DNA from: Minisyncoccota bacterium
GTDB taxonomy: Bacteria; Patescibacteriota; Minisyncoccia; UBA6257; 2-01-FULL-56-20
NCBI GenBank assembly: GCA_031291905.1
Contig: JARLIC010000137.1
Span: forward strand, 1 to 49,761
Direction: 5' to 3'
Length of the DNA stretch: 49,761 bases
The notes under the pieces are model-generated. The model saw only the letters and a list, made by a program, of their open reading frames with translations. It had not been told where the DNA came from and did not search any database. Shown piece after piece: positions 1,360 through 26,832 of the stretch (within the stretch, counting starts at the first letter, position 1; the number at the start of each line of letters is the position of its first letter). Position numbers and translations under genes: made by a program.

Positions 1360-1386
1360 GCCCCGCCCCAAAAGGCGGGGCTTTTT
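1360..1386 (+). terminator. Rho-independent terminator
   Basis: GCCCCGCC-ccaaaa-GGCGGGGC followed by TTTTT. Confidence 0.85.
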
Positions 1387-1400
1387 GCTTGCTTTTTCTC

Positions 1401-1429
1401 TTGCTTTCTTGCTTTCGCTGAGTTATGAT
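1401..1429 (+). promoter_or_regulatory. Sigma70-type promoter
   Basis: TTGCTT-17 bp-TATGAT immediately after the terminator. Confidence 0.7.
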
Positions 1430-1462
1430 TTCGGTGTCGAATGGAACACAAAAACCCCAGGG

Positions 1463-1993
1463 ATGCTAATCATGGAAACCGCGTCAGAAGTCAAATTGCA
1501 CGTCCGGTGGATGATCAAAGCGGATCTTGCGAGCGTCCTCGGAATCGAATCCAAAAGCTTCGACCGCCCTTGGTGCGAGGAGGATTTCTGCGACAGGCTT
1601 AGGTTCCGCAACGCCATCGGCATGGTCGTCGATCGAAACGGGACTGTCTGCGGCTACATGATCTATATGTTGGATCGCGGCAAGATCGTCGTTGAAAAGC
1701 TTGCCGTTCATCCTGATTTCCGACGCCAGAACGTTGGCAAGAAGATGGTCGACAAGTTGAAGTCGAAGCTCAACGAGAACCGGCGGCGGAAACTGGAGCT
1801 TTTGGTCCGCGAAACGAGCGTCGGGGCTCAGCTCTTCTTTAAAGAGATGGGATTTCGAGCCATCGAAGTGATTCGCGGGCATTTTGAGGACGAGGGCGTG
1901 GACGCTTACCTCATGTGCCACGAACTCGCGGATACGTTTTCCGCCGCGCCAGATGGGGAGATGCCGAGAAATCGAATCCGGATCTACCTGTAG
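1463..1993 (+). CDS. rimI: RimI-like GNAT N-acetyltransferase
   Basis: HVRWMIKADL..IE..SF..PW.EEDF, AVHPDFRRQNVG (acetyl-CoA motif A), VRETSVGAQLFFKEMGF, DAYLM. Start is 1463 or 1472. Confidence 0.85.
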   Translation: MLIMETASEVKLHVRWMIKADLASVLGIESKSFDRPWCEEDFCDRLRFRNAIGMVVDRNGTVCGYMIYMLDRGKIVVEKLAVHPDFRRQNVGKKMVDKLKSKLNENRRRKLELLVRETSVGAQLFFKEMGFRAIEVIRGHFEDEGVDAYLMCHELADTFSAAPDGEMPRNRIRIYL

Positions 1994-2007
1994 AGGTCGA
2001 CGCAACC

Positions 2008-20964: not shown

Positions 20965-21120
20965 CCAGGGCAACGCCGACGCATAACCGAATGGGCTCCG
21001 AGGGGGAAAGCCATGGCTGCCGACGATCCGCACCCCCGCGAGTCTCGAAGACGACAGCGAAGCCTAGGAACCTATTCCGAGTTTATCCAATACCGCGATA
21101 AACTCTGTATAACTCGATCT

Positions 21121-21197
21121 AGCCAGGCAAGGATGACGCGGTCGACAACGGCACCAACGCCAATGTCGGCCCCTAGGTTCGACTCCTAGGCTGGCTC
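21121..21197 (+). ncRNA. Non-canonical tRNA-like element
   Basis: Acceptor AGCCAG/CTGGCT; perfect T-arm CTAGG-TTCGACT-CCTAG; central stem GTCGACA/TGTCGGC with inner GGC/GCC; no D-stem, no 7-nt anticodon loop, no CCA. Confidence 0.55.
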
Positions 21198-21309
21198 TCT
21201 CGCCCCGTAAGCTGTGAGTGGGGGCGGGTCGTCGTGCGGCTGGACAGGTTACACCAACAGCGTGAACCAAGCGACGTTAACCGCAGCAAGCTATCAGTGA
21301 GGCACGCCG

Positions 21310-21351
21310 GCCCCCTGTCCGCGACCGACCATCGCAGGCAGGGGGCTTTTT
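21310..21351 (+). terminator. Rho-independent terminator
   Basis: GCCCCCTGTC.GCGA...TCGC.GGCAGGGGGC + TTTTT. Confidence 0.85.
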
Positions 21352-21392
21352 CATGCAACGAAAGAAAAGCAAGGAAATTCTGCCACACCCAC

Positions 21393-21421
21393 TTGACGTG
21401 TAGCTACACGCGGCGTATAGT
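21393..21421 (+). promoter_or_regulatory. Sigma70-type promoter with palindromic operator
   Basis: TTGACG-17 bp-TATAGT; perfect 14-bp palindrome CGTGTAGCTACACG at 21397-21410. Confidence 0.85.
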
Positions 21422-21467
21422 TTGGGTGCGGAGACGAGAGACGCGAGGATGAATCGGGAGATGACCG

Positions 21468-23045: not shown

Positions 23046-24347
23046 ATGACCACCATCAAGAACACTTTCCACAACACCACGGCCCGCACTGTTAAGACCG
23101 CCGACCAGATCGACGCCATCCGCGAGCGGGTCCAGTACCACGAGGCCAACGACGCCGAGCGAGCCCTGATCCGTCGCATCGACAATAAGCTGTGCGGCAT
23201 CAAGGATTGCTGCTGCGGCGGGTTCACGGTCATCAGCTAACCCCAACCACGAAAGGACCAACCATGCCACCTCTGCCGATCGACGCCAACGCTCGCAAGC
23301 AAGCCCAAAGCCTTGAAGCACGATCGGCACGGGCCAGGCGATACAGTCTCCTCCAAGCACGACGCGACTACTATCAGCGTTCACGCACTATTCGCTATGC
23401 CGCTCGTTTCATCAACATCTGACCACAAGGAACAATCCCATGTCCGAACATCAAGCCGCCTGCTATCAGCTCATGAATCAGCGATCCATCCTCAAAGCCG
23501 AGTACCGCATGTACCGCAACATGTTGACCACCTCAAACAAGGGCGATGGTCGGTATTGGGAGATCGGCCGAATGATGGAAAACTTGCACAAAGACATCAG
23601 CCGCATGACCAAAATCATCAAGGGAAAATGAGGTTGTTTTTGGTTAACCAAAATTCATGTTTTAGGCTAACCAAAAAATCCGCTCTAAGACAACTTGTCT
23701 GAGCCCACCCATTAATTAGCCAATCATCTAACTACTACGCGGTGTAGTAGATCGACGAAAGGCTTAGTCGAGTCCCAACTCCAATCCTCAATCCACGTTA
23801 GGAGCAAGCCATGCGATCGGAAACCTACTATACCCTGCGAAACATCAAAGCCTGTTGGGAGTCCGGCAAGGTCAGTGCGATCGAAGCCGCTTATGCCATG
23901 CTCGCGGGCATGTCAGGGGAGTTCATCGTCGAGAAGCACGACACGGTTTGCGGCCTCATGGGATGCCATCGCATCTCGATCACAAAGATGGCCAAGATTG
24001 ACTAACGGTTAATCTTTTCGCCCATCCAAAACCATGAAGTTTCTTTCAGGAGATTGGTCATGACGAAGAAAAAAGCTCCGTTTAAGTTCTTAGTGCTTCG
24101 GGAGATCACTGGCCATTTCTTGGATGCTGCCGCCCAAGACGTTCATGGAACTCTCAATGCGGTGGGAATCCGTTGCTCCGTGCCGGAGTTCTACGAGGGA
24201 GCGGGAATGCTTCAGGAATCTGGACTTATCGAGGTTTCTTTTCGGCACGCGGGTGCCGATGACGAATTCGCCCTCCTGCGTTGCTACCGCATCACCTCGC
24301 TTGGCAAAGCCGCATTAGCCGACGCTCTTGAAACCTACGAATTCTGA
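23046..24347 (+). CDS. Small hypothetical proteins (23046..23240, 23263..23422, 23440..23631, 23811..24005) and a winged-helix-like protein (24060..24347)
   Basis: RBS for each; 24060 has LQESGLIEV...YRITSLGKAAL (PadR-like wing). Confidence 0.65.
23637..23771. repeat. Cluster of inverted repeats in an AT-rich intergenic region
   Basis: TTTTGGTTAACCAAAA (23638-23653) and a degenerate copy at 23660-23678; AGACAA-c-TTGTCT; CTACTAC/GTAGTAG; TCGAC/GTCGA. Confidence 0.8.
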
Positions 24348-24359
24348 GGAGTGGAGGCC

Positions 24360-24976
24360 ATGACAAAGAAAACCCGAGAAACTATCCTCGCGGCGGCTAA
24401 CTTGATTCGGCAAGGCTGGGCGCAAAAAGTGGGCCACAAATACGTGGACGGCAAACACTACTATTGCATGCTTGCAGCATTGGCTAAATTTGAGCCTCCG
24501 CACGATTTCAGTGCGGCATTTGAAGTCAGTAAATACCTGAACGGCCGTGGGCACTGCGGAATCACAGCTTACAACGACGCTCCGGGTCGCACACAAGCCG
24601 AAGTGATTGCTTTACTCGAAGCCGTGGCTAATCAAATGGGAGACGAATCGTGACGCACGAAACCCGAGAGGTGTCGCTGCGAGCCCGCGATCTGGTGGAT
24701 CAGGGGTGGTGTAAAAATGATTACAAGGTCGAGATTGCCGGATCTTGGCGCTACTGCGTCGTTGCGGCGATCCATACCGCCGACGATCGAAGTTGTACGC
24801 ACACCAATGAAATCGTGCGTCTTGCATGCAAGCACCTGTCGATTCCGGTTAGCCCGACGTCTCTAGGTTCTTGGAACGACCGTCCATACCGCACCCAAGC
24901 CGAGGTGGTCGCCCTACTCGAAGCCGTCGCCAGCCAGTCCGATCCGTTGGCAGGTTGGCGTGAAATCGAAGTCTGA
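24360..24976 (+). CDS. Tandem DUF6197-like proteins, copies 2 and 3 (24360..24653; 24650..24976)
   Basis: A..L..QGW...YC...A...(Y/W)ND.P.RTQAEV.ALLEAVA. Confidence 0.7.
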
Positions 24977-25006: not shown

Positions 25007-25264
25007 ATGACGCGATCCAAGCTTCGTCGTGCGATCCGAGAGAAGATCGATGAAAAGCTCAGCTCGCTCGCGACTTCCGAGATTCGCAGCCTGCTTGTCT
25101 TGATTGCCGACACCATGGTCGATTACCTCGATGAGGAATCGCAATTCTACGACGCAGACGACTGCTTCATTGAGGTGAAATCCGTGCTCAATGACGCGGG
25201 GATCGATCCCGAACAGATTGGACGCGAAATTCTTGAAGCTGAGCAAGAGAATTCCCTTGATTAG
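25007..25264 (+). CDS. Acidic hypothetical protein
   Basis: AGGAG RBS. Confidence 0.7.
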   Translation: MTRSKLRRAIREKIDEKLSSLATSEIRSLLVLIADTMVDYLDEESQFYDADDCFIEVKSVLNDAGIDPEQIGREILEAEQENSLD

Positions 25265-25266
25265 CC

Positions 25267-25295
25267 TTGCAAACATGCAAGCGATTTGCTAAACT
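25267..25295 (+). promoter_or_regulatory. Sigma70-type promoter for the putative ncRNA
   Basis: TTGCAA-17 bp-TAAACT with TGn extension. Confidence 0.65.
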
Positions 25296-25301
25296 ACAAA
25301 A

Positions 25302-25744
25302 TAGGGAAAGAAGAGGTCTGTTCGACGTTCCGGGTTTCGGCCCGGCGGTGCTCCGGGGCTCCTGTCAGTAGGCCCGGTGATTCCTCCTAAGCTCGTAAGG
25401 GCCACGAGGACGGGCATCAGGTTAAAACCTCCCTGAGTGATGCTAGGCCGTGCAAAGGGGCGGCCGAATCAGGCTAGCGAAACCAGCTTTCCCGCAATCG
25501 CGGGTTTTCCGGGCAACGGGCAGGTAATCGATCCTGCAATGGGCCAGACGTCCCGGTCTAAATGTGATGAGCAAGAAAAAAAAGCCGGAAGCGAAGTTAG
25601 CCCGAAGCATCTGAAAGAGCCAGCAGACGTCGAACACCGGGATGGGCAAAAGACCCTAGATCACTAGGGATTGGCCCTTTCCACGCCTTGAGCTAGACAG
25701 AATGACGCAGGGCAGGGGGTGGGCTTAGGCTCATCCCTTTTTTT
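25302..25744 (+). ncRNA. Candidate large structured non-coding RNA (class not recognised)
   Basis: Own promoter and terminator; no ORF with an RBS; at least 12 mutually compatible helices, including long-range 25319-25328/25627-25636 and a loop pseudoknot. Confidence 0.7.
25714..25744 (+). terminator. Rho-independent terminator
   Basis: GGGGGTGGGC-ttag-GCTCATCCCT + T-run. Confidence 0.85.
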
Positions 25745-25793
25745 GTTGGTATTCGGCTCGACTCAGGATTCCGCAAACGGCAATGGAAATGTC

Positions 25794-25821
25794 TTGCTTT
25801 CTGGGGATTGTGTGGTATTAT
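25794..25821 (+). promoter_or_regulatory. Sigma70-type promoter
   Basis: TTGCTT-16 bp-TATTAT with TGn extension; AGACGA leader. Confidence 0.7.
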
Positions 25822-25881
25822 TGGGATGTAAGACGAAACGAGACACGAACGCAACGCCAACCACGAACGGGAGACAGACAG

Positions 25882-26121
25882 ATGATCGCAAACAGCAAGA
25901 TGAAAGCGAATTACTACGGCAAATGGGCTGCGGCCCGCAAGGCTTACGCCGAGATCATCAAGCACATCGAAGCCGGAGGACGAGTCGCTATCGCGTCGTA
26001 CACGAAGCCGCGAGTTCTTTCGGACGCCAGGTGGTTCAAGTGCGGTCGCGATGGGGTTTACATCGCACGCGGGAAGAACTGGGATTACCTGTTCGCTGAA
26101 GCGATTCGGCTTGTCGACTGA
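25882..26121 (+). CDS. Hypothetical protein
   Basis: GGGAG RBS. Confidence 0.7.
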   Translation: MIANSKMKANYYGKWAAARKAYAEIIKHIEAGGRVAIASYTKPRVLSDARWFKCGRDGVYIARGKNWDYLFAEAIRLVD

Positions 26122-26163: not shown

Positions 26164-26832
26164 TTGCACTATCACCTAGAAATCATCATGCCGCCGGTCG
26201 ATGACATCAAAGCGGCGATCGAACAGGTCCTCAAGCCGTTCGACGAGAATGGCGAGAATGAAGACGGGAACCGCAGCAATCACGCATTCTGGGATTTCTA
26301 CGTCATCGGCGGCCGATTCGCTGGGGTGAAACTGGAGGCGATGTTCGACGCGGATCGACTGAGGGCGTTCAACACCGAACTGGCAAACCAGAAAGTCACG
26401 GTCAGAGGCGTTCAGTTCGGGAAACAGGAGCTGGCACCGTCCAGTCAGATTCCGATGGTTGACGCTCTCTGGTGCGAGTCGTTCCCTGAATCGCCGATCA
26501 AGGTTTGCCCGATGTTCCGGCACTACAACGACCAGCACGAGGACAGCAACGGATTTCCCGACATCATGCGTCTCGGCGACGTTCCGGCATCGCTGAAGGC
26601 ATTCCGCGTCATCGTGGCAGGGCCGAATCATAGAGGTGAACTGGAAGCCACCTACATGATCCAAGGCGACATGTGGAACGGCGTCAGTTGGGTTGATACC
26701 CGATGGGATGGGCTGGTCCGCTCGACGGTCGACGCGCTGCGAGAAAAGCTTGGCGACTACAAGCCAGAGTACGCGGCTAGGAACACGCCGAACGATGATT
26801 GGCTGGCCGTGACCGTCGATTACCACTCGTGA
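26164..26832 (+). CDS. Conserved phage hypothetical protein
   Basis: MHY...L.PF.EN...WDFYVIGGRF...VDYH pattern. Confidence 0.75.
   Translation: MHYHLEIIMPPVDDIKAAIEQVLKPFDENGENEDGNRSNHAFWDFYVIGGRFAGVKLEAMFDADRLRAFNTELANQKVTVRGVQFGKQELAPSSQIPMVDALWCESFPESPIKVCPMFRHYNDQHEDSNGFPDIMRLGDVPASLKAFRVIVAGPNHRGELEATYMIQGDMWNGVSWVDTRWDGLVRSTVDALREKLGDYKPEYAARNTPNDDWLAVTVDYHS

Follow-up and report, generated by a model that had tools for sequence, protein, structure and literature searches.

What is held in the 617-nt gap between a stop codon at 25264 and the next open reading frame (ORF) led by a ribosome-binding site (RBS), at 25882, on a contig deposited with the genome of a Minisyncoccota bacterium (contig JARLIC010000137.1 of assembly GCA_031291905.1, here C76)? 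The stretch of DNA that was analysed, referred to as the window, comprises 49,761 nucleotides and is the first part of this contig of 119,133 bases. A first-pass annotation made from the letters of the window had placed in the gap a large, pseudoknotted non-coding phage RNA of unrecognised class. Comparison with relatives from other phages upholds this claim with two structural corrections. The gap very probably holds a real structured RNA of a new, so far unclassified family, and the locus is predicted to be its gene, present once in a complete phage genome of about 119 kb and giving a non-coding RNA of about 380-440 nt. Why would unrelated phages carry an RNA whose stems have changed repeatedly while about 35 of its junction and loop bases never have?

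The conserved core and its relatives

Relatives of the RNA were found in IMG/VR. A 16-mer taken from a hairpin of the RNA, Pb, matched 15 loci, but true homology was found for two only, L034 (nhmmer E = 3e-5) and L042 (6.5e-7). With a degenerate motif in which the stem could vary, seven loci were obtained, all seven with the extended core. Five loci were new from this motif, L050, L051 (nearly identical to L050), L052, L053 and L054. The family set consists of the window and seven IMG/VR contigs, eight sequences of which seven are distinct, and all eight loci are phage contigs. A collection of homologues and a covariation analysis, as proposed in the first-pass annotation, gave seven phage contigs with a homologous RNA and core stems that covary. 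A profile of the core found no further copy in 458 kb of loci or in the bin to which C76 was assigned, and the core pattern was absent from 400 other genomes of the bin's phylum.

The core is about 55 nt long in the family. Between its stems, the sequences GCAACGG, the 8-nt loop UAAUCGAU, CAA and ACGUCC are identical in all eight sequences, and about 35 junction and loop bases are invariant. Hairpin Pb is found in five versions, and the stems that adjoin the loop and the junction have changed four to five times. Conservation runs in blocks of 7-9 invariant bases with no three-base rhythm. Because the stems changed repeatedly and the junction and loop bases did not, those bases are expected to do more than pair.

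The pairing was evaluated on 13 pairs (Pa, ACG/CGU and Pb; Table 1) in a MAFFT alignment of the eight sequences, with 500 shuffles. All 104 cells pair, compared with a shuffled mean of 87.2%, and no shuffle equals this. Five pairs have changes on both sides, a number reached by 3 of 500 shuffles, and the 14 cells that carry these changes are equalled in none of the 500. The covariation score is 0.398 versus 0.122 (0 of 500), whereas counting further pair types gives no significant result (118 of 500). When the 3' partner is slid by 1-3 columns, core pairing falls to 25-42%. RNAalifold, unprompted, gives the identical 13 pairs. The G-U pairs place the structure on the plus strand, which is also the strand of the flanking genes and, at L042, of the tRNA genes.

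A pseudoknot joins the core to the 3' end of the RNA. A strand a few bases past the 3' side of Pa (Pa') pairs with the loop of a 3' hairpin in all seven distinct sequences, and this pairing exists in four versions, GUGAU/AUCAC, GUCAG/CUGAC, GGCAU/AUGCC and GCCGAU/AUCGGC. The native Watson-Crick runs are 5, 8, 5, 5, 6, 7 and 4 bp long, and their sum of 40 was reached by none of 2000 loop shuffles. Non-native combinations have a mean of 3.8 bp, and those with at least 5 bp (10 of 42) are mostly combinations of members of the same version. The proposed family is defined by Pa, GCAACGG, Pb with the loop UAAUCGAU, CAA, a linker of 6-8 nt, ACGUCC and Pa', plus a pseudoknot between a strand past Pa' and the loop of a hairpin ending in GGGA(A/U). 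The window has every one of these elements.

The core also accounts for the two corrections. A hairpin at 25546-59 and a pseudoknot between 25550-55 and 25638-43 had been proposed in the first-pass annotation. The strands of that pseudoknot can pair with one G-U, but bases 25552-56 are used by Pa, in a covarying helix with 25509-13, and both proposals are refuted.

The wider fold

Two helices, H1 and H2, enclose the core in the window, L052, L053, L054 and L050, with other sequences in equal places. A model, R1, was built from four sequences with this structure, the window among them. A search with R1 found all eight loci and nothing else in 324 kb; the window scores 139 bits against a model that it helped to build. 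In the R1 alignment, which was fitted to the structure and is therefore biased towards it, 86.9% of 191 cells pair, compared with 70.0 +/- 2.5% in shuffles and 28.6-45.0% when slid. Changes on both sides are seen for 21 of 30 pairs, and each of five measures was reached by 0 of 500 shuffles. The paired share is 80% for H1, 73% for H2, 70% for hairpin Hp1 and 100% for the core plus Pb, and the pairs changed on both sides include 6 of the 7 in H1 and 5 of the 5 in H2.

All four long-range helices put forward in the first-pass annotation are perfect complements, and each hairpin that it listed folds by itself. For the helix named P2 here, a different perfect 10-mer is found at the equal relative position in L052, and RNAalifold on the window and L052 keeps 9 consensus pairs, 5 of them changed on both sides. 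The terminal closing helix has an end closure of 11 bp at the equivalent relative place in L052. The register proposed for the window, GGAAAG/CUUUCC, is a perfect complement, but it competes with AGAGG/CCUUU plus GGG/CCU, which RNAalifold favours for the same two sequences. The helices 25349-53/25569-73 and 25378-83/25466-71, as perfect complements in the window sequence, are candidates. The UUCG hairpin at 25330-45 and the hairpins at 25491-504, 25520-37 and 25654-69 are backed by relatives.

Two runs from two other studies hold short contigs over the RNA, one of 245 nt over 25345-25590 (X5) and one of 249 nt over 25437-25686 (X6); 25464-25546 is identical in both. These contigs cover the RNA stretch only, and the missing cover of the flanks is no evidence. 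The X5 relative is about 93% identical to the window. It has 12 substitutions, of which 9 are listed, and six of these nine compensate one another two by two (25418 C>G and 25435 G>C; 25419 A>G and 25434 T>C; 25448 C>T and 25463 G>A). Among the other listed substitutions, one breaks a terminal pair (25417) and two are located in a loop or junction. The arms at 25446-65 and 25417-36 are backed, but the inner pairing of 25414-43 given in the first-pass annotation is unlike the simplest fold.

Table 1. Positions of the RNA gene and of its predicted elements in the window
Feature	Position	Strand	Remarks
RNA gene	25302-25745	+	about 440 nt, given a start at the putative promoter; folded body about 25304-25690
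Promoter-like TTGCAA-17-TAAACT	25267-25295	+	8 of 12 consensus positions; unproven
Terminal closing helix, 5' strand	25304-25317	+	pairs with 25675-25690; two candidate registers
Long-range helix P2, 5' strand	25319-25328	+	pairs with 25627-25636; perfect 10 bp
Hairpin P3, UUCG loop	25330-25345	+	-9.4 kcal/mol alone; L052 has a GAAA-loop hairpin there
Variable 5' peripheral domain	25346-25471	+	arms 25417-21/25432-36 and 25446-50/25461-65 supported by double changes in X5
H1, 5' strand	25472-25478	+	pairs with 25596-25602; closes the conserved domain
H2, 5' strand	25486-25490	+	pairs with 25581-25585
Hairpin Hp1	25491-25504	+	stem covaries in L052, L053 and L054
Ultra-conserved core	25509-25556	+	Pa, GCAACGG, ACG/CGU, Pb with loop, CAA, variable linker of 6-8 nt, ACGUCC
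Core helix Pa	25509-13/25552-56	+	covaries in the eight-sequence alignment
Core pairing ACG/CGU	25516-18/25549-51	+	eight-sequence alignment
Core hairpin Pb	25520-24/25533-37	+	loop UAAUCGAU at 25525-32, invariant
Pseudoknot, 5' strand GUGAU	25564-25568	+	pairs with loop AUCAC at 25660-64
3' hairpin, loop in pseudoknot	25654-25670	+	followed by conserved AGGGA(A/U)
Intrinsic terminator	25714-25744	+	11-bp stem (stem-loop to 25739), 4-nt loop, T-run; called by the scan

Comparison with known RNAs

Is the RNA a member of a family that is already known? The cmscan search suggested in the first-pass annotation was done with Rfam 15 (4227 models, including GOLLD, ROOL, OLE, raiA, HEARO, riboswitches and ribozymes), with the gathering score of each family as the criterion. 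There were no matches in the whole window or in the rest of the contig. In a permissive mode with E values up to 10, the 851 nt from 25100 to 25950 gave only SorY and one long non-coding RNA (lncRNA) match of 13.7 bits; the SorY match is the terminator hairpin (27.1 bits, gathering score 111). At the homologous loci, Rfam found tRNAs and a DUF3800-IX RNA (RF02968) in L042 and an lncRNA in L053 that is below threshold (24.4 bits, gathering score 80), and nothing on the RNA itself.

The hallmarks of transfer-messenger RNA (tmRNA) and of RNase P RNA had been noted as missing, and ARAGORN, RF00010 and RF00023 gave nothing in the window. ARAGORN found no tRNA or tmRNA in the window contig. The RF00010 search of the genome gave only C108:174-360, on another contig, and type A RNase P RNA is absent from the window. 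With RF00023, six short stretches of the genome were found (74-85 nt, 15.6-21.5 bits, below the cut-off), all on other contigs. No T-arm, G-U acceptor stem or CCA end can be read from the sequence of the RNA, and the loop of its 3' hairpin has 4-6 nt and is not a T-loop. Some phages are reported to carry tmRNA genes. The new RNA is like tmRNA in its paired ends, the adjoining long-range helix, the internal pseudoknots and the hairpin just before the closing 3' strand, but it has neither a tRNA-like domain (T-loop, G-U acceptor pair, CCA) nor a tag reading frame. A possible similarity between the core and the 3' domain of 16S rRNA was considered and rejected, as the local alignment to a 16S gene (L056) scores 24 compared with 26.0 +/- 3.3 for the shuffled core.

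The phage RNAs GOLLD and ROOL, for which no function is known, are often located near tRNA islands and form RNA-only cages, and many GOLLD RNAs are longer than 800 nt (PMC12286853). The new family is similar in that all are orphan, highly structured, pseudoknotted phage RNAs for which no partner protein or function is known. As in GOLLD, a conserved 3' part stands beside a variable 5' part. The tRNA-island setting is seen for the new family at one of seven homologous loci. Since neither the GOLLD nor the ROOL model of Rfam is matched and the new RNA is smaller (about 380-440 nt), it is not a member of either family; its core sequence and fold are unrelated, and the resemblance is one of setting and character only.

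Fremin, Bhatt and Kyrpides (2023, PMC10690425) have described 10,006 viral structured-RNA candidates supported by covariation. The new family may be among these candidates. Their abstract puts the weight on tRNA-like structures, terminators and cis-regulatory motifs and not on a 400-nt pseudoknotted RNA. When the motifs were looked for as words in a paper library, primers and unrelated matches were all that came up, and a topical search gave nothing specific.

Close DNA relatives were found neither elsewhere in the genome nor in 60 relatives of the bin, GenBank phages or plasmids; the GenBank phage search gave three chance matches with E values of at least 0.4. A 20-mer (25470-89), which is outside the family-wide core, had one chance match each in genome and in metagenome contigs, a contig of a Rhodobacterales metagenome-assembled genome (L002) and a near-identical stretch in a TARA metagenome contig (L022). 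Other stretches of the window, used in two viral scans, matched nothing.

Coding potential and limits of the gene

The core is spanned by ORF 25437-25667, which codes for 76 amino acids from a GTG start with no RBS. A search of 5.8 billion proteins gave a single match, the same protein in another assembly. The X6 relative has two separate 1-nt deletions within the ORF, although the contig depth is 2.2 and these may be errors. On that strand an ORF of at least 70 amino acids lies over the core in 3 of the 7 distinct sequences when the window is counted, and in 2 of the 6 others. Across the family, the linker that follows hairpin Pb varies in length between 6, 7 and 8 nt. The RNA is regarded as non-coding because the ORF has no homologue, a relative carries 1-nt deletions and the linker varies in this way. 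Conservation of the ORF in the relatives, which would have spoken for a protein, is not seen.

That about 440 nt here have no RBS-led ORF is borne out by the gap. The description of the surroundings as wall-to-wall coding was judged from ORF lists alone, and further gaps of about 500 nt exist. The terminator named in the first-pass annotation was found by the scan as a hairpin with a T-run, and it begins about 30 nt past the end of the fold. Between this terminator and the ORF at 25882 there is a site, TTGCTT-16-TATTAT (25794-25821), with TGG before the -10 hexamer as in the extended -10 type. It was seen by eye and was not called by the scan.

Genomic context of the homologues

No ORF product is common to the loci within 5 kb, three of the loci being only 2.4-3.2 kb long. 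The neighbours are a large terminase at L034, RusA and an HNH endonuclease at L050, and an integrase and a cysteine-dioxygenase-like gene at L053; one homologue is about 1 kb from an integrase gene. At L042, genes for tRNA-Arg(CCU) and tRNA-Leu(UAA) are directly downstream on the same strand. No tRNA genes were found in the window contig or in the five further loci scanned. A DUF3800-IX RNA (50 bits, gathering score 36.8) is located just upstream of the L042 homologue on the opposite strand; the coordinates noted with the two are 1939-2002 (+) and 1369-1526 (-). No terminator-like site was found downstream of the L052 homologue.

How the RNA may work

In the fold shown by the comparison, the closing helix and P2 join the two ends of the RNA, and the variable 5' domain comes next. 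H1 and H2 close the conserved domain, inside which Pa and Pb are framed by the approximately 35 invariant bases. Pairing of the strand past the core with the loop of the 3' hairpin locks the structure through a long-range pseudoknot. In the proposed mechanism, the RNA would be a compact folded particle acting in trans. It has a free-standing gene in unrelated phages, with no protein companion and in settings that differ, and these features suggest, with moderate confidence, that the RNA works in trans by way of its invariant core.

The invariant junction and the 8-nt loop of Pb could form a surface or pocket for a partner that is constant across phages, and this partner may be a conserved host macromolecule or a small molecule. 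The RNA might then serve as a decoy, sponge or scaffold that aids the phage. No complement of the Pb loop was found among the invariant stretches elsewhere in the RNA, so the loop may dock in a non-canonical way, meet an outside partner or pair with itself through AUCGAU. Self-pairing would permit drift by double changes, and the loop is wholly invariant; an unchanging outside partner is thus the better guess. A tRNA T-loop had been considered as the pairing partner of the Pb loop, but this was speculation and was dropped. That the RNA binds an external partner, rather than assembling with itself or acting as a catalyst, is suggested tentatively from sequence comparison. It is more doubtful whether a new class of functional phage RNA has its working site in the invariant core, be it a pocket for a conserved host molecule, a ribozyme or the contact of an RNA-only particle. 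The molecule soaked up by such a pocket might be a nucleotide of immune signalling or might belong to the machinery of translation or of tRNAs, and such a contact might assemble phage particles made of RNA alone, of a third kind after GOLLD and ROOL.

Several observations weigh against the reading of the locus as a free-standing gene for a structured RNA with an outside partner. The fold energy is marginal on the plus strand (z = -1.97, with 3 of 100 shuffles as good; z = -1.49 on the minus strand), and so the claim is decided by comparison with relatives and not by thermodynamics. The duplex energy of H1/H2 has z values of +0.14, -0.73, -2.66, +0.05, -2.02, -0.77 and -1.8 in the seven sequences and is unsupportive in four or five of them; only L053 and L050 are below -2, and L042 is borderline at -1.8. 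The set of eight sequences (seven distinct) is small, and it falls into two subtypes that are unlike outside the core, one with the window, L052, L053 and L054 and the other with L034, L042 and L050/L051. The promoter TTGCAA-17-TAAACT of the first-pass annotation is present as a sequence but was not called by the promoter scan, which has a threshold of 9 of 12 consensus positions. The RNA may be cut out of a longer early transcript instead of having its own promoter, and with so weak a promoter it could be the tail of an upstream operon. The region is present in two metatranscriptome assemblies from one study, with the flanking genes included, and DNA carry-over is possible, so this is not proof of expression. 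The contigs break off at 25572, 25675 and 25760 and start again at 25839 and 25931, but these are ends of contigs and need not be transcript ends. Lastly, the Pb loop includes the 6-nt palindrome AUCGAU, which fits self-pairing too.

That palindrome raises the possibility of an 'ornate' RNA whose copies join by AUCGAU loop-loop pairing into a dimer or a larger RNA-only complex. The loop has no complementary partner inside the molecule, and one homologue is directly upstream of two tRNA genes. ROOL, GOLLD and OLE form homo-oligomers that are partly held by kissing loops (PMC12286853). However, the palindrome is identical in eight of eight sequences even though Pb has five versions and the pseudoknot four, and at about 400 nt the RNA is below the size of ROOL or GOLLD; self-assembly is considered unlikely. 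Somewhat less likely again is a ribozyme with the invariant junction as its active site, which could, for example, cleave itself out of a longer transcript or away from tRNAs next to it. Many invariant junction bases framed by covarying stems and a pseudoknot are seen in known ribozyme cores too, and the homologue that adjoins a tRNA gene would suit such a role, but no ribozyme family of Rfam matches and a conserved context for a cleavage site is not seen. A cis-acting leader or 3' untranslated region element, such as a riboswitch-like sensor of read-through at the terminator, would fit the short distance of about 30 nt from fold to terminator and the replication genes downstream in the window. 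It is improbable given that the downstream genes are unrelated at other loci, that the L052 homologue has no terminator-like site after it and the L042 homologue is followed by tRNAs, and that a separate promoter-like site, seen by eye, is present between the terminator and the next gene.

The remaining explanations deny that the RNA is new or that it is an RNA. A small protein gene (the 76-amino-acid ORF) or a DNA element, such as an origin or attachment site, is very improbable. The ORF spans the core and one homologue is near an integrase gene, but the lack of an RBS, the GTG start, the missing homologues, the frame-breaking indels and the block-wise conservation are at odds with a protein, and the strand-specific G-U pairs and the nested covarying helices over about 200 nt are at odds with a DNA element, as is the integrase gene of the window phage, which is 11 kb from the RNA. 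Hardly credible is a very divergent tmRNA, RNase P RNA or other known RNA missed by the Rfam models. The topology of the RNA appears similar to that of tmRNA and RNase P RNA, in that the ends pair and are followed by a long-range helix, internal pseudoknots and a hairpin on the 3' side. No such match appeared at E values up to 10, though, the ARAGORN, RF00010 and RF00023 searches were negative, and the T-arm, G-U acceptor stem and CCA end are missing.

The phage genome and the setting of the locus

The opening 100 or more bases of C76 are repeated at position 118,992, and C76 is therefore a circular assembly, the complete genome of a phage of about 119 kb. Its products include capsid, portal, large terminase, tail-completion protein, RNA ligase, integrase, SNF2-type helicase and clamp loader. 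In the bin of 0.95 Mb it is a tetranucleotide outlier (r = 0.81, compared with at least 0.94 for most contigs of at least 8 kb). The phage genome was probably mis-binned with a small-genome bacterium. The sole hint of a host, a Planctomycete, is one neighbouring protein with a homologue 61% identical in Aquisphaera giovannonii. The genome has one copy of the RNA, and replication genes are its neighbours on the downstream side.

Other features of this genome were observed. The large terminase (C76 85076-87625, minus strand; L031:15315-17864) has 849 amino acids, and its N-terminus is separated from the terminase domains by a LAGLIDADG-like domain. This domain may mark an intein, or a homing endonuclease may have been inserted there. 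C76 101219-102502 on the plus strand (L032:11458-12741) codes for an RNA ligase (PF09414) that also has an OB-fold domain (PHA02142), in a phage with no tRNA genes. Directly upstream of the RNA gene there is a tandem, overlapping pair of DUF6197 paralogues (window 24351-24653 and 24650-24976). Adjoining the RNA on the other side is a gene for a protein of 222 amino acids (window 26164-26832), which has no Pfam domain and 512 homologues, in many phages and some bacterial chromosomes. An alignment of 30 shows 25 invariant residues, including H2, E6, P10, C115 and the C-terminal TVDY. At 19 phage loci coding for this protein the RNA is absent, and other neighbours are not in common. Two stretches of about 500 nt each, at approximately 20965-21467 and 23241-23810 of the window, have no convincing ORF in the ORF lists and no Rfam match; the second has a lower G+C content and a reversed GC skew. 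In the bin, the only RNase P RNA match, the 187 nt on C108 (31.9 bits, gathering score 100), may be the reduced RNase P RNA of a small-genome lineage; the 16S rRNA was not assembled.

Significance

Large, intricately folded RNAs with no known job are rare, and GOLLD, ROOL, OLE and raiA all proved to be architecturally unexpected. Orphan structured phage RNAs as such have precedents; the RNA described here represents a class with no detectable relative. With about 200 nt in its conserved domain and about 400 nt in total, it is within reach of probing, binding screens and cryogenic electron microscopy. Its gene appears to belong to a new family that is free-standing and travels between unrelated phages. 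Conservation of the core is far stricter than that of any protein encoded nearby and points to a direct interaction with something that many hosts have in common.

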